Shown here: positions 1,632-19,790 of the stretch, piece after piece
How the letters are laid out: the number at the start of each line of letters is the position of its first letter
How positions within the stretch are numbered: position 1 is the stretch's first letter
From: Leptospirales bacterium
Lineage (GTDB): Bacteria; Spirochaetota; Leptospiria; Turneriellales; JAOUFE01
DNA length: 45,661 nucleotides
Direction: 5' to 3'
Assembly: GCA_040326155.1 (NCBI GenBank)
Contig: JBEQLE010000026.1
Span: 1 to 45,661 of the forward strand
Notes under the pieces: model-generated
What the model was told of the DNA's origin: nothing
Seen by the model: the letters and a program-made list of their open reading frames with translations, nothing else
The model's database searches: none
Made by a program: the position numbers and the translations under genes

Positions 1632-2648
1632 ATGAACGATTCTCAAAAAAAGTATACCATTTACTGGCTGGTCTCTGTGTGCATTTTAATATTTATAATG
1701 GTCCTGGTTGGTGGAATAACCCGACTTACCCACTCTGGCTTGTCTATGGTTGACTGGAAGCCAATTCTGGGCACGATACCGCCGATCGGGGAACAAGCAT
1801 GGTTAGAAACCTTTGAACAATATAAGCTGTTTCCTGAATACCAGAAAGTAAACTTTGGAATGACTCTTTCAGAGTTCAAGACGATTTTTTTCTGGGAATA
1901 TCTGCATAGAATTCTGGGACGAATTATTGGCATGGCTTATGCCATTCCCTTTTTAATTTTTGGAATTAAAAAATACTATAATGCAGCCTGGGTTAAAAAA
2001 CTTTTAGTCGGTCTAGTTTTAATTGGACTACAAGGACTCATGGGATGGTACATGGTCATGAGTGGTCTTGAAAGTCGTCCTAGCGTCAGCCATTACCGTC
2101 TCGCCGCTCACCTGACATTTGCTTTTATTATCGCGGGTTATATTCTCTGGATAATACTCGATCTTATTCGAAATAAAAGCTCCCACTCACCGGCGCCCTG
2201 GTTTAAATACACCGTCTTCATAACCAGTGGAATTATTTTACAAATTATTTATGGGGCTTTCACGGCAGGCTTAAAAGCCGGTTTTGACTATAATACCTTT
2301 CCTCTTATGCGCGGTGAAATTATACCTTCCGGCGCTTTCAGTTTTATCCCTTTTTTAACGAATTTCTATGAAAATGAGATTATGGTTCAGTTTATACACC
2401 GAACCATAGCCTGGAGTTTATTAATATCCATAACGGTTTTTTTCTATATGGCAAAGAAAATGGTCCTTTCACCGGAACAAAAAAAAGCAAATCATATGCT
2501 CATTGCTACGTTGGGTATTCAGTTTTTACTGGGTGTATTTACTCTGATTTATGTTGTGCCAGTTGCGCTCGGTGTTTTGCACCAGGGCGTCGCTTTTATT
2601 TTATTCCTGACGGCTATTTATGTAAACCACACTTATTCAAAAGTTTAA
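1632..2648 (+). CDS. ctaA: Heme A synthase (COX15/CtaA)
   Basis: GGITRLTHSGLSMVDW, FFWEYLHR, GWYMVMSGL, SHYRLAAHL, QFIHR and LHQ motifs; multi-TM. Confidence 0.95.
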   Translation: MNDSQKKYTIYWLVSVCILIFIMVLVGGITRLTHSGLSMVDWKPILGTIPPIGEQAWLETFEQYKLFPEYQKVNFGMTLSEFKTIFFWEYLHRILGRIIGMAYAIPFLIFGIKKYYNAAWVKKLLVGLVLIGLQGLMGWYMVMSGLESRPSVSHYRLAAHLTFAFIIAGYILWIILDLIRNKSSHSPAPWFKYTVFITSGIILQIIYGAFTAGLKAGFDYNTFPLMRGEIIPSGAFSFIPFLTNFYENEIMVQFIHRTIAWSLLISITVFFYMAKKMVLSPEQKKANHMLIATLGIQFLLGVFTLIYVVPVALGVLHQGVAFILFLTAIYVNHTYSKV

Positions 2649-10608: not shown

Positions 10609-12198
10609 ATGGTTTATATTATTCAATTAATTCTGGGAATTGCGCTACATTTATTTCTGGCGGCTCAATTTTCGAGTGGTACAATACATGGGAAAATTGT
10701 ATTCATAAGCTTCAGTTCTGTATTTGAGAAAGTTACACTGATTGCGCTTGTTATCCTTATGCAATTTTCCATTTATCTCGGGTTAAAAAAATGGGGGCGT
10801 TTCCATAAAACAGCAAAAATCGACCTGGGTCCTCATGACCGATTTTTTGTATATCTTTTATCGGTAATTCTATGTAGCTTTATAGTCTACTCCATTTTTG
10901 CAACCGAAACATGGGTTTCCAAAATTTCCATCGCTACGGTCATACTGAACACCTTGTTCATATTTTTTGCGGCTTTTTTTGAAGAGCTTGTATTTCGTGG
11001 TTATTATTTCAAACAACTCATCACCAGGTTCCCAAAGGCCATGTGGGGAATAATTATCGTACAAGCCGCTTTTTTCGCGCAGGGCCATATGGATAATCCC
11101 GATTCCACTGTTATTATGATGATGAACATATTCCTCATAGGTGTCATCTTGGGAATTGCCGCAATAAACCATTTTACAGCAGTTGTGGTTTTTCATTTTT
11201 TATGGAATTATTTCTCGGGATTTGTGTTCGGTTTACCCGTATCGGGTTATCTGTTTTATGAGTCACTGGCAAGACCAAAACAGGTATACAACTGGGAGGG
11301 TTCTGTTGTGCTTTTCTTTTTGTTGCTTCTTCCGACTATGGTTTTGATCTATTTTATGATTCAATCGGCAAAAAAAAAATCATTCAAAATCGGGGTTGTG
11401 GACTTTTTAAATGCTTACCCTCTTTACTATGGGCTCGAAAATCTTCCTCATGTTGAACTTGTTCGCGAAATTCCCAGCCGGTTGTCCACTTTACTAAAAG
11501 AAAAAAAGCTCGACGCCGCTCTGGTTTCATCGATTGAATATTATAAAAATCGAACCTTGTGGAAATACCATCCCGATCTTTGCATCAGCTCTAGTAAGGG
11601 AGTAGAATCAATTCGAGTTTTCTTCAAAACGCAGACTGCCGAACAAAACGGCGATTTCAATACATTGACCGAACGGCTATCATCAGCAAAACTTATAACT
11701 ATATATTATGATCGGGCCAGCCGAAGTTCGGTCGAAATTTTAAAACTATTGCTTATTGAAAAACTTCCCCGCACCCAAACCCGATTTATTGAAATTAACC
11801 CACCGTTTGAACAAAAACTTGACAATCTAAAACCCGAAGAACTTTTACTGCTTATTGGCGATGAGGCGCTGCGAAATCGTAACCGCGCTTCCATCGATCT
11901 TGGCTCCTGGTTCACCGCCACATTTCAACAGCCCGCAGTTTATGCATTATGGTGTTACCCAGAAAACCATTCCCCTGAATTACCCTCGATTTTATTAGAA
12001 GGGTTCGCCCAGAGTAAAAGTAAATGGAATCAAATGCTGCAAAAAGCCGGCGAAATATTTAAATTTGACTTCGACTTTGTAAAAAAGTATCTGGAAATAA
12101 ACATACAATACACACTAGATGAAAGTCGGTCTAAAGCGCTTACTTTCTTCTTTGAAAAATACTCTGCTGTTGCAAAACAAACAGACAAGGACAAATAG
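10609..12198 (+). CDS. mqnA: CPBP (Abi) intramembrane metalloprotease fused to chorismate dehydratase MqnA
   Basis: N-half has EELVFRG, FAQGH, HFLWN. C-half has IG.V.FLN..PL, PS.L...L....LD.ALVSS.EY, V.SI, SRSS, LLIGD.AL, DLG..W. Confidence 0.85.
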   Translation: MVYIIQLILGIALHLFLAAQFSSGTIHGKIVFISFSSVFEKVTLIALVILMQFSIYLGLKKWGRFHKTAKIDLGPHDRFFVYLLSVILCSFIVYSIFATETWVSKISIATVILNTLFIFFAAFFEELVFRGYYFKQLITRFPKAMWGIIIVQAAFFAQGHMDNPDSTVIMMMNIFLIGVILGIAAINHFTAVVVFHFLWNYFSGFVFGLPVSGYLFYESLARPKQVYNWEGSVVLFFLLLLPTMVLIYFMIQSAKKKSFKIGVVDFLNAYPLYYGLENLPHVELVREIPSRLSTLLKEKKLDAALVSSIEYYKNRTLWKYHPDLCISSSKGVESIRVFFKTQTAEQNGDFNTLTERLSSAKLITIYYDRASRSSVEILKLLLIEKLPRTQTRFIEINPPFEQKLDNLKPEELLLLIGDEALRNRNRASIDLGSWFTATFQQPAVYALWCYPENHSPELPSILLEGFAQSKSKWNQMLQKAGEIFKFDFDFVKKYLEINIQYTLDESRSKALTFFFEKYSAVAKQTDKDK

Positions 12199-13833: not shown

Positions 13834-14709
13834 TCATGAATGAATTAATGTCATAGAAAATATTACAAATAAAACGAGAACGCTGTATATATTAATGGCA
13901 ATAAATGTTTTTTTATAATTCATATTTTTACTGGGAAAGATCAGGTTTCGTGACATCCACAAAATACCAATAGAGATTACGATTAAGGCAACCCAGACAG
14001 CTTTAATATAAATATCGCCGGCAATCGGAATCGCAAGTGCGGAAAGGACCGTAACAAATATTCCGGCAAATGTTAAATAACGTAGCGTCTTTTCTGAAGT
14101 TTGTTTAATAAGAGTGGGTAAACCAGCCTTTTCATAATCGTCTCCGTATAAAAACAGCAAAAGCCAGAAATGGGGAATTTGCCATACAAACATAAAGAAA
14201 CAAACCGCAAGAATAAACGGGTCGAGTATATCTCCCCCGGCGGCAGCCCACCCCACCCCTGGCGGAACTCCGCCAATAACAGAGCCTGGTATTACCGCAA
14301 TCGGTGAAACTCGTTTCAAATAGGTATAAAAACCATTGTACCAGATAAACGCAGAAAGGCCAAGTGCAGTTGCAATCCAGTTTGTTTTTAAGACGAGTAT
14401 TGTAAGGCCTGCGACTAAATAAAGTAAAATAAAAATAACGACATGTAGTGGTTTTACACGACCAGAAGGAAGCGGACGATCTTTTGTCCGATTCATTTTT
14501 GCATCAAGCTTCCTGTCTTGTAACTGGTTCAACGCAGCCGAGCTGAGTCCGATTAATAATATCCCGAGAACGGGCCAGATAATATGAGAAGTCCTTGGCG
14601 CATCAACAAGCAAATACCCAATAGCCGTAGTAATAGTCACAGAAAAAGTAATCCGTATTTTTCCTAGCTCCAGGGACAGAAGAATCCATTTTTTTAACCA
14701 AGCGATCAT
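13834..14709 (-). CDS. ctaB: Protoheme IX farnesyltransferase (heme O synthase)
   Basis: NQ..DR..DA.M.RT..RPLPSGR, YT.LKR, WQ.PHFW, DY..AG.P. Confidence 0.95.
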   Translation of the reverse strand: MIAWLKKWILLSLELGKIRITFSVTITTAIGYLLVDAPRTSHIIWPVLGILLIGLSSAALNQLQDRKLDAKMNRTKDRPLPSGRVKPLHVVIFILLYLVAGLTILVLKTNWIATALGLSAFIWYNGFYTYLKRVSPIAVIPGSVIGGVPPGVGWAAAGGDILDPFILAVCFFMFVWQIPHFWLLLFLYGDDYEKAGLPTLIKQTSEKTLRYLTFAGIFVTVLSALAIPIAGDIYIKAVWVALIVISIGILWMSRNLIFPSKNMNYKKTFIAINIYSVLVLFVIFSMTLIHS

Positions 14710-14923
14710 TTGTTTTTTGTTTTTCGCACATGGCGCGAATATCTAACGAGTATATGCAAACTGATAAAGGTGCATGGCCTGCCAAGTGAAAAACAAATCC
14801 TTTACAAACTATTTTGAAATAACGGGATGTTAAATATATGCAGCTTCTTACCTGAAAATTTTCCAGGAGTCGGTAAATCGATTTCTAAGTTGCTATACAA
14901 TTATTATCAAAAGGAGATTATCA

Positions 14924-15340
14924 ATGATGCAAAATTTACCCGCTATATTTTCTTCGTTTAACGCACTTGCCTTTATCTTTATTATAGCTGCTTACATAGC
15001 TATACGGGCAGGAAATCAAGATAGACATAAAAAATTAATGATAGGAGCCCTTGGCGCCTCTGTAGTTTTTCTTATACTTTATCTTTTTTATCATTACACA
15101 AATGAAGCCCCAACGAGATACCAGGGAACAGGTTTTATACGGTTTGTATATTTTACAATTCTGCTTTCCCACACAATTTTGGCCGTTATTATACTGCCTA
15201 TGATTATAACTACGGTGATGTTTGCTGCAAAAGGGAAATTAGAAAAACATAAAAATTTGGCGAAGTGGACCTTCCCGTTATGGGCATACGTATCCATTAC
15301 CGGAGTAATTGTTTATCTAATGCTGTATCAGTTTCAGTAA
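14924..15340 (+). CDS. DUF420 family membrane protein
   Basis: H...M..A...S..FL..YL.YH, YF.IL.SH..LA, H...A.WT.P.W.YVS.TG..VY.MLY. Confidence 0.9.
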   Translation: MMQNLPAIFSSFNALAFIFIIAAYIAIRAGNQDRHKKLMIGALGASVVFLILYLFYHYTNEAPTRYQGTGFIRFVYFTILLSHTILAVIILPMIITTVMFAAKGKLEKHKNLAKWTFPLWAYVSITGVIVYLMLYQFQ

Positions 15341-15360
15341 TTTTGAAAGAATTTTGAAAG

Positions 15361-15395
15361 AAAAAAAACCGGAAGAGAAAGTTTACTCTTCCGGT
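15361..15395 (-). terminator. Intrinsic terminator of the oxidase operon (between convergent genes)
   Basis: CCGGAAGAG-N8-CTCTTCCGG stem with an A-run on the left, read as a U-tract on the minus strand. Confidence 0.75.
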
Positions 15396-15410
15396 CATTG
15401 ACCAGCACTA

Positions 15411-15647
15411 CTACTCACCGGAATCGGATTCAGCTTGCTTAGTACCTTTTCGATAAACATAGTAAATGGTCAGCCCGATCGATGTCGGAAGAATTGATAG
15501 TATTAGAACTGTTAAACCATATGCACCCATTTTGGATTCCGAATATCCGGCTGTGCAAGTTGAACAAGCCATCAAAGAAGATACCGAATACACACTGTAA
15601 ACAAGAACTGCTATCAGGATTTTACCTGTTTTCATTATATTTTTCAT
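15411..15647 (-). CDS. Small membrane protein with CxxC, last gene of the oxidase operon
   Basis: Signal-like N-terminus, AC STC motif, one TM helix; co-oriented with the cox genes. Confidence 0.7.
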   Translation of the reverse strand: MKNIMKTGKILIAVLVYSVYSVSSLMACSTCTAGYSESKMGAYGLTVLILSILPTSIGLTIYYVYRKGTKQAESDSGE

Positions 15648-15670
15648 AGTAAGACCCTATTTTGTTTTTA

Positions 15671-16279
15671 TTAGTACATGTAAACCAGTACATACAATAT
15701 TGGCCAAAGACCAACTACGAAATACCAGTAAATACTAGATGATGAAATAGACTTTTTAATTAAGTCAAAATCGGAGGCTTTTGCTATTTTTATTACAATA
15801 GCAGTTAAATAAAACAGACCGCCTAATGCGTGAATTCCATGCGCTCCAATAATCAAGTAGAAAAAGGAGCCATACAAATCGGTAGTCATACTTTTATTTT
15901 CACTCATTAAGGCCACCCACTCAGCGCCTTGTAGAGCTACAAATAAATAGCCTAGAAACAATGTAGCTACAAGTAATAAATTTACTTTTTTCTTATCCAT
16001 CTCTTTGGATTTACCAATTTCACGAACGACTAAATACATCGTAACTCCACTCATTAATAGAAAGGAGGTATTGATTGCAGTCCAGGTGAAAGGTAGTACA
16101 CCAAGCCAATCTACAGGAGGCCAGGCACCGGTATAATCTGCGCGATTAACTATAAGCGCACTGATTAAACCACCAAAAAGCATTACTTCAGTAGCGAGAA
16201 ATATTAAAACCCCGAGAACTCCGTTATGAATAACGGAGTTCCGGGAAGTTCCTCGCCTATGTTGAGAAACTGTTTCCAT
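15671..16279 (-). CDS. ctaE: Cytochrome c oxidase subunit III (second copy)
   Basis: FLATEVMLF.GL, NT..LL.SG, Q..EW, FY...G.H..H, YWYFV..LW. Confidence 0.9.
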   Translation of the reverse strand: METVSQHRRGTSRNSVIHNGVLGVLIFLATEVMLFGGLISALIVNRADYTGAWPPVDWLGVLPFTWTAINTSFLLMSGVTMYLVVREIGKSKEMDKKKVNLLLVATLFLGYLFVALQGAEWVALMSENKSMTTDLYGSFFYLIIGAHGIHALGGLFYLTAIVIKIAKASDFDLIKKSISSSSIYWYFVVGLWPILYVLVYMY

Positions 16280-16282
16280 AAT

Positions 16283-16657
16283 TTATTTTACAGTACCTTC
16301 AAGAATCTCGTATAGATTTACAAAATCTACAGCAGGATCAAGTGCGGTAAAGTTCACTGACAATATTTGATGAATATTCGCTGAATCCGGATATACTCCG
16401 GCAAAGAAAATAATCATACAAGCTATTGAAAGATATGGGAACAAATCAACTAACTTTGGCTCATACTTCAGGTGCATAAAATTTGCAATAACCAAATATG
16501 CTTTGATTGTTGAAAAACCAAAAATAAGTGTTACGGATAACAATTTATTCCCGGTGACCACGAAGTCAACGACAACGCTAAGGGCCATTAGTACTACAAG
16601 TACTATACCAATAACATTGTAATTTGGATGTCCATGATAATCTTGTTCGTTTGACAT
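16283..16657 (-). CDS. ctaF: Cytochrome c oxidase subunit IV
   Basis: KA.LV...FMHLKYE motif, three TM helices. Confidence 0.88.
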   Translation of the reverse strand: MSNEQDYHGHPNYNVIGIVLVVLMALSVVVDFVVTGNKLLSVTLIFGFSTIKAYLVIANFMHLKYEPKLVDLFPYLSIACMIIFFAGVYPDSANIHQILSVNFTALDPAVDFVNLYEILEGTVK

Positions 16658-16675
16658 ATTTATCTCCTTTTACTC

Positions 16676-17323
16676 TTACTGAGCTAAATAGAACATAGGA
16701 AACAAGAAAATCCAGATCAAGTCAACCATGTGCCAGTACATACCAGCTAGTTCAACTCTGTGAAGATTCTTACCTTTGCTCGCACTCAGCATCACGATAA
16801 AAATGGCAAGCGCACCAATAACAACATGCAAACCATGAAAACCAGTCATAATAAAGTAGTATGACCAAAATAATGTTTTCACTGATTGCAGTCCGCCGTC
16901 AGCAGCGATTGCGCCGTACTCAGTTGGAAGCCAATCAAAACTTCTTAAGCTTGCGCCAAGATGAAAATCGTGGCTCCACTCAAAATAAAATTTGATAAAC
17001 AAGAAAACTGCCGCCAAAGCGATAGTGACCAAGCTAAACATCTTAATTTTACTAAGTTCGTTGTTCATTGCCGCTTCATGAGCTTTAACGATCGACCAGC
17101 TACTCGCTAGTAAAATCGTCGTGTTAATTGCGCCCCAATACCAAAGAATAATCGGTTGATCACCGTCCATCATTGCCGCTGGAAAAGCACCACCGTACTC
17201 AAAACGAGCCAATAGGTAACATGCTATAAATCCACCGAAGATGATTAACTCACCAGCAACCAACAACCATATAGCCAAACGGCCTTTTGGTACTTGTTCT
17301 ATAGTTACATTTTCAGCACTCAT
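16676..17323 (-). CDS. ctaE: Cytochrome c oxidase subunit III
   Basis: W...GE..IFGG, NT.ILL.SS, YF.MTGFHGLHV, GMYWH.VDLIWIFLFP. Confidence 0.92.
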   Translation of the reverse strand: MSAENVTIEQVPKGRLAIWLLVAGELIIFGGFIACYLLARFEYGGAFPAAMMDGDQPIILWYWGAINTTILLASSWSIVKAHEAAMNNELSKIKMFSLVTIALAAVFLFIKFYFEWSHDFHLGASLRSFDWLPTEYGAIAADGGLQSVKTLFWSYYFIMTGFHGLHVVIGALAIFIVMLSASKGKNLHRVELAGMYWHMVDLIWIFLFPMFYLAQ

Positions 17324-17349
17324 ATATTCCTTCCTTATAGTTTCCTGAA

Positions 17350-19038
17350 TTACTGCTCATTCTGAGGCCAGTAATCAGAACCACTTCTATCGGGATGACT
17401 GTACTCGTATGGTCCTCTATAGCAAGTCGGATACGTTTCAAAGTTTCCGTGCGGAGGAGGTGAGTCAGCAACCCATTCCAGTGTATTGGATTTCCAGGGA
17501 TTTTTGCCAGCAGGTTCGCCACTGACAGCACTTTTGAATATATTGATAAACAACAATAACTGAGAGGCAGCAAGAATAATAGCTCCAATAGTCGCTACTA
17601 CTCTAAACTGTAAAATCCAGTCTTGTTCTACCATAAAGTCATAGACCTGGTAGTCAACAATTCGTCTGTGTTGTCCCCACATTCCAGTAAAGAAAAGCGG
17701 AAATGCGAAAACGTTCAATCCGATAATAGTTAACCAGAAATGAAGTTTTCCCAAACCTTCGCTCATAAATTTACCGCTAAATTTCGGGAACCAGTAATAA
17801 ATACCGGAAATACCACCGAAAAATACGACTGGAATGAGCGTATAATGGAAGTGAGCTACCACGAAATAAGAATCGTGGGCATAAATATCAAAAGCACTTG
17901 AACCAAGGTAAATACCAGTTACACCACCAACAAGGAACATCGATACGAAACCGGTGGCCCAAAGCATTGGTGTTTTCATTTCAATCTGCCCGCCAAAATA
18001 GGATGCAATGTATGCAAACATAATTAAAGCAAACGGAATTGAAATAATAATAGTGGTAATACTGAAGAATGTCGCCATTCTTGGGTCAATACCTGCAATA
18101 AACTGATGGTGAGCCCAAACAATTAAAGCGATAAACGCTGAAGCAACAGCTGATATCAAAACTAATCGATATGCAAAAAGTGGCTTACGAGTAAAAGTTG
18201 GAATAATCTCAGCAACAATACCTAAAGCTGGAAGTAATACTACGTATACTTCAGGGTGTCCGAAGAACCAAAACAGGTGTTGGAATAAAACCGGGTCTCC
18301 CCCGCGAGCGGGATCGTAAAAACCAGTACCAAAAACCCTGTCAAACAGAAGCATTACAGCGCCTGCAATTAGAGGTCCTACAGAGAACATGAAGTCAAGC
18401 GCAGCAAGGTTTACAAACCATACTACAATTGGAATATCCATGAACTTCATACCTTTAGCTCTCATATTAAGAGAGGTTACCATGAAGTTAATACCACCCA
18501 TTAGCATAGAAGCAAATTCTAATGCTACAGCAAGAATCAATAGTGAAGGACCTGAAATCAGGTTACCTAACACTGCGCCCACCGTTGAGTAGTCTCCACC
18601 GTAGCTCGCCGAGAGAGGCGGGTAAATCGTCCAGCCTGTCGCAGTTGGTCCTCCGCCGCCCCATAGGCCGCTAATTAATGAAAGAACCAATACCAAAGTA
18701 CTGACTAAAAATATCCAGAATGACATCATGTTCAATTTAGGGAACGCCATATCATCGCAACCGATCATTAAAGGAATAACAAAGTTTCCTAAAGCTGCCA
18801 ACAATACGGGCATTGCAGCCCAAAAGAACATAATCATAGCATGGTTAGTCACCAAACCATTGTACACAGTTCCACTCATATCCATTGAACCTGGCCAAGC
18901 CAGTTTGATACGAAATACAACCGCAAACATTCCGCCAATAAAGGCAAACAATAGTCCTGTGAAGAAATACTGTTTCCCAATTACTTTATGGTCTGTAGAA
19001 AATATTTTTCCTAATAGACCAGTTTCATGTGAACTCAT
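17350..19038 (-). CDS. ctaD: Heme-copper oxidase subunit I (A-family-like)
   Basis: STDHK.IG, DMAFP.LN, GWT.YPPLS, FWFFGHPEVY, WAHH, HD.YFVVAHFHY, RR. Confidence 0.96.
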   Translation of the reverse strand: MSSHETGLLGKIFSTDHKVIGKQYFFTGLLFAFIGGMFAVVFRIKLAWPGSMDMSGTVYNGLVTNHAMIMFFWAAMPVLLAALGNFVIPLMIGCDDMAFPKLNMMSFWIFLVSTLVLVLSLISGLWGGGGPTATGWTIYPPLSASYGGDYSTVGAVLGNLISGPSLLILAVALEFASMLMGGINFMVTSLNMRAKGMKFMDIPIVVWFVNLAALDFMFSVGPLIAGAVMLLFDRVFGTGFYDPARGGDPVLFQHLFWFFGHPEVYVVLLPALGIVAEIIPTFTRKPLFAYRLVLISAVASAFIALIVWAHHQFIAGIDPRMATFFSITTIIISIPFALIMFAYIASYFGGQIEMKTPMLWATGFVSMFLVGGVTGIYLGSSAFDIYAHDSYFVVAHFHYTLIPVVFFGGISGIYYWFPKFSGKFMSEGLGKLHFWLTIIGLNVFAFPLFFTGMWGQHRRIVDYQVYDFMVEQDWILQFRVVATIGAIILAASQLLLFINIFKSAVSGEPAGKNPWKSNTLEWVADSPPPHGNFETYPTCYRGPYEYSHPDRSGSDYWPQNEQ

Positions 19039-19790
19039 TAAGAACCCTCCTCATCAGGAAAACGGCTAGTGTATTGTGGAGGTTTAATATCTGCTATACC
19101 TTCATAGAAAGCGGCAGGATTTGCTAGAAATTCTGCATAATCTTCCGGAGATACAACTTTTACTTCCCCACGCATCGAACCGTGGTTACTACCGCAAATT
19201 TCAGCGCATATTAACTCATAGTTCTTCCCGCTAATTTGGGTAGCTTCAACCCATCGTACAATAACACGGCCCGGGATTACATCTTGCTTAAATCGAAATT
19301 CTCTCACAAAAAAGTTGTGAAGCATATCGACAGAGCTTAGATTTAACTCAGACACCTTGTTCACGGGTAAGATTAATGGTTTCCCATAATCTCCATCAAA
19401 ATCATCAGTAGTACCAAGTTTTCCATCCGCTCCTGCGTACTGAAAACTCCATTCAAACTGCTGTCCTGTAACCTTAACAGGAACAGATTTTGCCTTCTGA
19501 TCATCCGTCATAAATTCAACCTTGGTCCATACTTTAGTTGTTATTATGTCAATATACATATCACATGCAACAACAAGTATTAAGGGTATCAAGATCCATT
19601 TAGTTTGCTCCCAGCCGATACCAGGGATATACTTAGCTTTCCCCCCCTCGGTTTTAAGGCTGGTAAAGATACCATAGAATAGAGCTGCGGTAGATACGAC
19701 AAACCAAGCAACTACAAATATTGTAATCTCAATAATCAGTCCATCAATATCTGCAGCATAGCTACTAAAACTATCCGGTAATATTTTCAT
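19038..19790 (-). CDS. ctaC: Cytochrome c oxidase subunit II (CuA)
   Basis: Two TM helices, G.QF.W.F.Y, D..H.F, KQD..PG, CAEICGSNHGSM CuA motif. Confidence 0.94.
   Translation of the reverse strand: MKILPDSFSSYAADIDGLIIEITIFVVAWFVVSTAALFYGIFTSLKTEGGKAKYIPGIGWEQTKWILIPLILVVACDMYIDIITTKVWTKVEFMTDDQKAKSVPVKVTGQQFEWSFQYAGADGKLGTTDDFDGDYGKPLILPVNKVSELNLSSVDMLHNFFVREFRFKQDVIPGRVIVRWVEATQISGKNYELICAEICGSNHGSMRGEVKVVSPEDYAEFLANPAAFYEGIADIKPPQYTSRFPDEEGS

Follow-up and report, generated by a model that had tools for sequence, protein, structure and literature searches.

In A-type heme-copper oxidases, lysine K362 (reference residues are given in Rhodobacter sphaeroides numbering) and the K pathway to which it belongs are treated as indispensable for the reduction of the binuclear center, and the reductive phase of the textbook enzymes depends on this lysine. 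To our knowledge, the K-type pathway is often called the only proton input that is shared by all O2-reducing families. The present work concerns an oxidase operon found in 45,661 nucleotides of DNA from a Leptospirales bacterium (assembly GCA_040326155.1, contig JBEQLE010000026.1, positions 1 to 45,661 of the forward strand; this whole stretch is hereafter called the window), the catalytic subunit of which, CoxI, has an isoleucine in place of K362. Judging from the residues that are kept and lost, it is very probable that this protein belongs to a working O2 reductase that has no K-type lysine pathway. The enzyme shares with the canonical aa3 oxidases of the A1 subtype (R. sphaeroides, 1M56; Paracoccus denitrificans, 1AR1) the 12-helix fold of subunit I, the ligands of the hemes, CuB and Mg, the GHPEVY motif, the Asp/Asn set of the D channel and the CuA center in subunit II, but the identity is about 38%. 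It differs from them along the K pathway (S299A, T359F, K362I and S365A, with E101Q in subunit II), along the D pathway (a glutamate at S197, an aspartate beside D132 and a hydrophobic residue at S201), and at M335, H472 and P480, which are replaced by Gln, Phe and His, respectively, and it carries a C-terminal tail that is conserved within its clade.

Oxidases of the A family without this lysine have already been catalogued in print and, therefore, the premise of the preliminary description of this DNA, that such enzymes were unknown, was too strong. The accessible parts of the work of Degli Esposti et al. (bioRxiv 10.1101/2020.03.01.968255; PMC8239418) list the aa3 oxidase of the rus operon of Acidithiobacillus, those of Elusimicrobia, Calescamantes and Methylacidiphilaceae, and that of Halobacteriovorax, which have in common with the present enzyme a hydrophobic residue at K354, the frequent loss of the entry Glu of COX2 and a D channel that is kept. 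The K-channel pattern is nonetheless different, being Y-A-I-F-A-E here, Y-L-I-T-A-E in the rus enzyme and Y-A-I-S-C-E in Elusimicrobia, and the extra N-terminal helices are absent here. In its accessible text, the bioRxiv report describes acidophilic iron oxidizers in which hydrophobic residues stand in place of K354 and of COX2 E78 and suggests that their enzymes keep only the D channel, and PMC8239418, as far as it is accessible, distinguishes canonical, KC, hybrid and modified K-channels among about 30 COX1 subclades. The available portion of a 2026 preprint mentions a K-less cytochrome c oxidase (COX) in Ferrigenium, with consequences that are unclear. The B and C families (ba3, cbb3) also work with a single proton-input pathway (bioRxiv 10.1101/2020.03.01.968255; PMC8239418, accessible parts), as is proposed here, but theirs is a K-analogue without a D pathway and the reverse is proposed for this enzyme, to which their similarity is low (E about 1e-16 for ba3). 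The nearest Lys-containing sister in the trees is the 'a-III subtype' aa3 of Bacteroidota, the type of the alternative complex III (ACIII)-aa3 of Flavobacterium johnsoniae, which likewise has two COX3 genes and coexists with the Lys-less enzyme in two metagenome-assembled genomes (MAGs) of Bacteroidota. The F. johnsoniae enzyme was considered as a member of the clade and rejected, given that its K-channel is canonical and full (Y S K S N E ... E) in Fig. S7 of PMC8239418. Among the Lys-less A-family oxidases already catalogued, the clade described below would thus represent a well-defined variant, in which the K path appears erased and the D path reinforced by an invariant glutamate.

Residues of CoxI were assigned from a phmmer alignment to subunit I of R. 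sphaeroides (1m56_A, E 1.2e-117) that is free of gaps over helices VI to VIII, and the codon coordinates of the mapped residues were verified against the DNA (Table 1). The stretch 'ipfalimfay' of CoxI lies under 'vptgikifsw' of the reference, which gives F, I and A at the positions of T359, K362 and S365, as the preliminary description had read them, and Ala at that of G360. The alignment adds the replacement of S299 by A276 in helix VII, followed by a glutamate (E277) at the position of H300, and places T329 at T352. In subunit II, the absence of the usual channel-entry Glu, claimed at the outset, agrees with the HMMER alignment to 1m56_B, where Q62 occupies the position of E101 (E78 in P. 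denitrificans); this pairing is anchored by the W..P motif in a weak stretch of the alignment (i-Evalue 1.8). Directly before it stands E61, which the preliminary description had missed and which is not conserved in the clade, the entry position itself being Q, H, E or K across the aligned clade subunits II; most of the Bacteroidota loci have H, whereas E and K were each seen in individual loci. As aligned, hydrophobic side chains occupy the K path all the way between S299 and K362, and the D path is complete and has gained two carboxylates.

The active-site and D-channel signatures reported earlier for subunit I were all matched in this alignment. The six histidine ligands of heme a, heme a3 and CuB (three for CuB) are H66, H261, H310, H311, H396 and H398, corresponding to H102, H284, H333, H334, H419 and H421. 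The GHPEVY motif starts at residue 260, with E263 equivalent to E286 and Y265 to the cross-link tyrosine Y288, and the D-channel set D132, N121, N139, S142, N207 and Y33 is found as D96, N85, N103, S106, N184 and Y24. The pairs H411/D412 and R481/R482 are also kept. CoxI has, therefore, the ligands, the Glu/Tyr pair and the D-channel set of the A1 subtype, and the K-channel set of that subtype is replaced (I339, F336, A276 and Q62 of CoxII). The extra glutamate noticed earlier in helix IV is E174, at the position of S197, and the second new carboxylate is D95, which doubles the aspartate D96 at the mouth of the D channel. From helical periodicity and the known structures, S197 is presumably one turn above S200/S201 and near the level of E286; the S201 position is M178 in CoxI. 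In the accessible part of a published channel definition, S197 is among the residues lining the D channel (PMC10341450).

These residues bear on the proposal that the enzyme uses another substrate or ion, being a nitric oxide (NO) reductase or a Na+ pump. The unusual proton channels are the only feature that points in this direction, whereas the cross-link Tyr, the three CuB histidines, Glu286 and CuA are all invariant, the NO reductase families described in the accessible part of PMC11214002 have an altered active site, and aa3 oxidases are the closest match in both fold and sequence. Neither the loss of the cross-link Tyr nor a change of the CuB/FeB ligands, by which an NO reductase could be recognized, was found, which makes this proposal highly improbable. 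Of the earlier suggestion of a different proton route, coupling ion or substrate, the first part is upheld, because a distinct subfamily without a canonical K pathway must supply its chemical protons by another route, while the other two conflict with the invariant hallmarks of an O2 reductase.

The structure of CoxI predicted by AlphaFold2 from a 97-row alignment has a predicted local distance difference test score (pLDDT) of 94.2 and a predicted template modeling score of 0.94. The best PDB matches in Foldseek are subunit I of P. denitrificans and of R. sphaeroides, with template modeling scores of 0.87/0.92 and a root mean square deviation of 1.7 Å for 1ar1_A.

Conservation was evaluated in relatives retrieved by a word-indexed search that scored 8000 candidates, the best 120 of which are 92-57% identical to CoxI. 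The clade alignment contains 119 of these and the query, P0020 having been left out as truncated (509 amino acids), and it was compared with 67 representatives picked for the motif P[TS][GA]xK, for which the count of Lys is true by construction. The K362 column of the 120 clade sequences holds I (81), V (19), M (9), W (6) and L (5) and never Lys, which indicates that the pattern is neither chance nor error. At T359, Phe is found in 112 sequences, Ile in 7 and Leu in 1, and at S299 the residues are A (61), G (42), S (9), C (6), T (1) and L (1). The glutamate at S197 is present in all 120 sequences, and the 67 Lys-containing representatives have S or A there. The residue before the entry Asp is D in 113, E in 6 and P in 1, and thus acidic in 119 of 120; in 43 of the 67 representatives it is P. 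The position of M335, directly after the His pair, is Gln in 120/120 (HHQ), with M in the Lys-containing representatives. S200/S201 are partly lost, S201 being replaced by M, F or I. The metal ligands, E286, Y288, D132, N121, N139, S142, N207, Y33 and R481/R482 are 100% conserved and H411/D412 is invariant. This conservation of ligands and D-channel residues down to 57% identity indicates purifying selection on an O2-reducing enzyme that uses its D channel. Q23, at the position of L32, was considered as a further clade-specific residue and rejected, because Gln is also found in Lys-containing sister sequences.

A relocated lysine or another ionizable substitute was sought in the transmembrane helices of the clade, and a scan of the modeled helices returned E174 as the sole conserved ionizable residue that is clade-specific; it lies in the D channel. 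The alignment accordingly places no Lys or other ionizable residue at or near the K position of CoxI. In a sub-branch of the clade with the motif 'PIAE' (P0103, P0113, P0115, P0117-P0119, P0121), a Glu stands at the position of I361, just before that of the former lysine, and this is the case in 6/120 clade sequences; judged from the motif, this sub-branch may represent a different solution inside the same clade.

The two ends of the K path are kept. A region that conducts protons without lysine would be given room for a file of water by the small side chains of alanine or glycine at S299 and of alanine at G360, and this file would join E277, together with the His, Gln or Glu of subunit II, to S333, T329 and Y265, so that the K path would be remodeled and E174 would have a separate role in the D channel. 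Such a path is consistent with the acidic residue at E277 and the serine at S333 (the A356 position), each found in 120/120, with the conservation of T329, with A or G at S299 in 103/120 and with the His, Glu or Lys seen at the entry position of some subunits II, and comparable cases are classed as 'modified' or 'hybrid' K-channels in the accessible part of PMC8239418. It is nonetheless rather unlikely, given that the bulky Phe stands at T359 in 112/120, that the residue at the Lys position is always large and hydrophobic (I, V, M, W or L) and that helices VI to VIII have gained no ionizable residue. The KC-channel positions (equivalents of G304, M308, A311 and G319 of P. denitrificans) are A, V, S and A in a mapping made by hand and not against the authors' alignment, and in this mapping one of the four 'KC-specific' positions, S311, is protonatable. 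On this mapping CoxI would fit the 'modified' class better than 'KC'.

On the side of proton exit, the H472 position is Phe in 120/120 and the P480 position is His in 119/120. In CoxI these are F449 and H457 (17668-17694), a swap beside the Arg pair of the heme propionates by which GMPRR becomes GQHRR, and it may be an exit-side change that accompanies the one on the input side. The C-terminal tail (residues about 525-562; 17350-17463) is clade-specific and strongly conserved, with H530, G531, R541, G542, Y544, E545, S547, D555 and Q559, is modeled with pLDDT above 90 and should face the cytoplasm, the side to which both proton channels open.

The sequence falls in a distinct clade, none of the members of which is a characterized enzyme. 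In a FastTree of 128 rows the clade is monophyletic, with support 100 and a long stem (0.37). In a quick IQ-TREE of 54 rows, rooted tentatively on the long branch of the B-like oxidase from the host genome, an extended Lys-less clade of 16 rows has support 100, and the Elusimicrobia-type Lys-less pair P0134/P0265 adjoins it with weak support (84 in the Shimodaira-Hasegawa-like approximate likelihood ratio test, SH-aLRT). The Lys-less clades and the Lys-containing Bacteroidota aa3 type (L099, L100, P0124, P0253) form one group with support 98, several nodes inside the Lys-containing A1 lineages. Under the tentative rooting, this nested position suggests that the loss of the lysine is derived. 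Three outlying Lys-less sequences about 50% identical to CoxI (L016, L017, L102) have the Glu of the ALEF motif but not the doubled Asp, and in two of them the His pair is not followed by Gln. Neither the Glu at S197 nor the doubled Asp occurs in the Lys-containing sisters L099 and L100, which have the motif IPSAIK and retain S200/S201. The Planctomycetota MAG G065 has two Lys-less paralogues, L101 and L102 (IPFFILMVCL and IPFFILSVAF), both with the ALEF Glu and with HHM, not HHQ.

The named members of the clade all come from MAGs, among them those of Turneriellaceae (75% identity), Spirochaetia (70% identity), Leptospiraceae, Bacteroidota (including Chitinophagales, Saprospiraceae and Kapaibacteria), Calditrichia, Oligoflexia and Planctomycetota. 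An exhaustive search of 50%-identity representatives found the clade signature only in P0121, P0122, P0157, P0182 and P0263; P0121 and P0122 match CoxI over most of its length, the better of them with 57% identity, and the next representatives have at most 46%. The combination of S197Glu, doubled Asp and HHQ and the pattern Y-A-I-F-A-E were not found in the tables of PMC8239418, as far as these are accessible, nor were the taxa of the clade (searched as Turneriella, Kapabacteria and the stems Spirochaet- and Saprospir-) in any of the five supplementary files of that article. A description of the signature was not found in the searchable literature, which leaves subscription papers, e.g., Degli Esposti 2020 in BBA, out of reach.

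Loss of the lysine as such was surveyed in 157 aligned rows, made of the 150 nearest 50%-identity representatives, the query and six clade members. The K362 column has no Lys in 65 rows from several unrelated lineages, a few of these rows being fragments gapped there, and lysine loss is thus common in sequence space. A large lineage of fused subunits I+III has Gln or His at K362 with Glu at N207, and another Lys-less lineage has the motif TELISxPF, in which a Glu falls on M353. A glutamate at S197 as a general partner of lysine loss was considered and rejected, since all 10 Lys-less rows that have it, the query included, belong to this clade; elsewhere in the survey, the Gln-type has Glu at N207 instead, and several lineages have neither.

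The best explanation overall, held with confidence a little short of even, is that the operon encodes a functional aa3-type (A1) cytochrome c:O2 oxidoreductase, the K pathway of which has been dismantled and the D pathway reinforced. Within this explanation, that the D pathway alone supplies the protons is a tentative proposal, if a plausible one. Chemical and pumped protons would then both enter by the D pathway, the pair D95 and D96 would strengthen the mouth at which protons are collected, and E174 would provide a second relay or reservoir for protons inside the protein. With E174, E263 (Glu286) could be reprotonated fast enough for the reductive phase too, serving the pump site and the binuclear center at every step. 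Support comes from the distant Lys-less sequences L016, L017 and L102, which have the ALEF Glu that is absent from the Lys-containing L099 and L100, and from the host genome, where searches found neither another A-family oxidase nor a cytochrome bd and where a heme A synthase is present. The broader statement, that a widespread clade of the A family runs its whole cycle on a single reinforced D pathway, with a doubled carboxylate mouth and the Glu pair E174/E263 at the top, is possible but more doubtful.

Several observations weigh against a dismantled K pathway and a D pathway that does all the work. Substitutions of K362 nearly abolish turnover in the model enzymes, where this residue is essential, and a route through the D pathway only would, therefore, depend on compensating changes. 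The near loss of turnover is also stated in the accessible portion of the 2026 preprint. That the enzyme is active, how its protons travel and what E174 does are inferred from sequence, and the proposed proximity of E174 and E263 comes from alignment and helical periodicity. The top of the K path (Y265, T329 and the new S333) and its bottom (E277, acidic throughout) persist, and most Bacteroidota members have His at the entry position of subunit II, so that a water-only path through the K region may still operate. The association of E174 with lysine loss amounts to one evolutionary transition and does not count as replicated evidence, and other Lys-less lineages do without a Glu at the S197 position. 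In Bacteroidota, finally, the enzyme need not be the main oxidase, given that two of the three sampled genomes also have a Lys-containing aa3.

The host genome (171 contigs, 94.7% complete) has three COX1 matches, namely the CoxI of this window, a B-like enzyme and a divergent NorB-like protein, and CoxI is the only A-family oxidase found in it. Cytochrome bd was not found in this genome at that completeness, and ActD of ACIII, cytochrome b and heme A synthase are present. Matches of the A type were counted at E<=1e-50 in 61 genomes of the same class, the host's included. The Lys-less type (64-100% identity) occurs in six, the host, all three other genomes of its family, G019 and G049, and each of them has a single A-type match. 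The copy of G049, a genome of 4 contigs and 99% completeness, is 64% identical to CoxI. The remaining genomes with a match have sequences 38-44% identical to CoxI, and all nine of those sampled read IPTAIK. Taken together, these counts indicate that the Lys-less enzyme replaces the canonical one in this lineage.

The distribution also bears on the idea of an O2 reductase with altered energetics, in which a lower H+/e- ratio or a slow, high-affinity turnover would make the enzyme an O2 scavenger or a specialized oxidase instead of a pump with full coupling. Extra acidic residues in the D channel, of the N139D type, uncouple pumping in model enzymes, and here both channels have changed together, with the K path lost, S200/S201 partly lost and an extra carboxylate in the D path; the coexistence with a canonical aa3 in Bacteroidota would also fit a specialized role. 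This is nonetheless an unlikely account of the enzyme, given that neither another A-family oxidase nor a bd oxidase was found in the host and five related genomes, and that the pump-associated residues E286, R481/R482 and H411/D412 are invariant.

If the reading of a functional oxidase with only a D pathway is true, the enzyme would mirror the B and C families, in which the K-type pathway is the only one used, and would be a natural counter-example to the K-type pathway as the one universally required proton input of O2-reducing heme-copper oxidases. The enzyme belongs to a large and strongly conserved clade in which hydrophobic residues fill the K pathway and the D pathway has acquired an invariant buried carboxylate, and which apparently provides the only A-family oxidase of several aerobic spirochete genomes. 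E174, D95 and F336/I339 would provide a concrete and mutable hypothesis for the rerouting of the reductive-phase protons, and the enzyme a candidate for testing models of proton gating.

The minus-strand operon spans 13834-19790 and comprises CoxII, CoxI, CoxIII, CoxIV, CoxIII', a small open reading frame and heme O synthase, with the start of CoxI overlapping the stop of CoxII (Table 1). The order CoxII-I-III-IV-III' is repeated in 13 of 14 clade loci. The CuA ligands of CoxII, H, C, C, H and M (LHNFF...CAEICGSNHGSM), are kept in 15/15 aligned clade subunits II. The presence of heme O and heme A synthases in the window supports a heme complement of the aa3 type, and together with the intact CuA ligands and the absence of a cytochrome c domain from CoxII it indicates the operon of an aa3-type cytochrome c oxidase. 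As the preliminary description had supposed possible, databases already contain the subfamily, either unannotated or misnamed, the NCBI name of the clade members P0027, P0043, P0050, P0055, P0107 and P0114 being 'cbb3-type cytochrome c oxidase subunit I'. CoxI scores 444.5 bits against Pfam COX1 (cut-off 34.8) and 572.4 against the NCBIfam equivalog TIGR02891 CtaD_CoxA, below the cut-off of 670.75, and CoxII scores 116.6 against the CoxB equivalog, below the cut-off of 147.7. With such scores and labels, inventories of aerobic respiration made from metagenomes may misclassify the clade. The low CtaD_CoxA score is also the one point in favor of a decaying or non-functional paralogue, an explanation that is effectively refuted by the conservation pattern: the operon is intact, every ligand is conserved across several phyla, the gene is the only A-type oxidase in six genomes, and the structural model is confident (pLDDT 94.2).

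Table 1. Positions in the window of the oxidase and heme synthase genes and of the CoxI and CoxII residues discussed (aa, amino acids)
Feature	Position	Strand	Basis and remarks
CoxII, 250 aa	19038..19790	(-)	Pfam COX2 E 4.3e-12; CuA-type, without cytochrome c domain
Q62 of CoxII, at K-channel entry Glu position (R. sphaeroides E101 / P. denitrificans E78)	19605..19607	(-)	HMMER alignment to 1m56_B; codon checked
CoxI, 562 aa	17350..19038	(-)	Pfam COX1 E 5.5e-133; A1-type (GHPEVY) catalytic subunit
D95-D96 of CoxI, doubled carboxylate at D-channel mouth	18751..18756	(-)	Alignment; D96 = D132
E174 of CoxI, at S197 position, helix IV (D-channel lining)	18517..18519	(-)	phmmer alignment
A276 of CoxI, at position of K-channel S299, helix VII	18211..18213	(-)	phmmer alignment; followed by E277
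Helix VIII of CoxI, TIIISIPFALIMFAYIAS	18001..18054	(-)	T359->F336, K362->I339, S365->A342; S333 at A356 position
CoxIII-like subunit a, 215 aa	16676..17323	(-)	Pfam COX3 E 2.2e-17
CoxIV (prokaryotic subunit IV), 124 aa	16283..16657	(-)	Pfam COX4_pro E 5.2e-10
CoxIII-like subunit b (CoxIII'), 202 aa	15671..16279	(-)	Pfam COX3 E 4.7e-19; syntenic
Small membrane open reading frame, 78 aa	15411..15647	(-)	No family match
DUF420 membrane protein	14924..15340	(+), between operon genes	Pfam DUF420 E 4e-40
Heme O synthase (CyoE/CtaB)	13834..14709	(-)	Pfam UbiA; NCBIfam cyoE_ctaB E 2e-55
Heme A synthase (CtaA/COX15)	1632..2648	(+)	PF02628 E 1.1e-100 at C90:1662-2615

Among the other genes, the CoxIII-like subunit a is syntenic in 13/14 clade loci, and CoxIV scores 41.2 against NCBIfam caa3_sub_IV, above the cut-off of 37.25. 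Heme O synthase reaches 188.5 bits against NCBIfam cyoE_ctaB, below the cut-off of 210.3. The small membrane open reading frame has no match in Pfam or NCBIfam, and tblastn among the clade loci matches it only in the closest locus, L007. The DUF420 gene adjoins the oxidase genes in L007 and L009 and is nearby in L006. Near the operon, a 529-aa protein (10609-12198, plus strand) fuses an Rce1-like CAAX protease domain to VitK2_biosynth (menaquinone via futalosine).

Elsewhere in the host genome, a second oxidase operon of the B-family type (L002, C83:36292-40572) encodes a CuA subunit II of 183 aa, a subunit I of 478 aa with GHTIVNITMY in place of the expected GHPxVY, a membrane protein of 213 aa and an SCO-like protein, a gene content that recalls the eNOR operon in the accessible portion of the 2026 preprint. 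A third locus (L003, C44:45658-49794) has a 430-aa heme-copper oxidase-like protein behind a 126-aa monoheme cytochrome c (CISCH), with VVAHSM where the heme-ligand motif HFH is expected.

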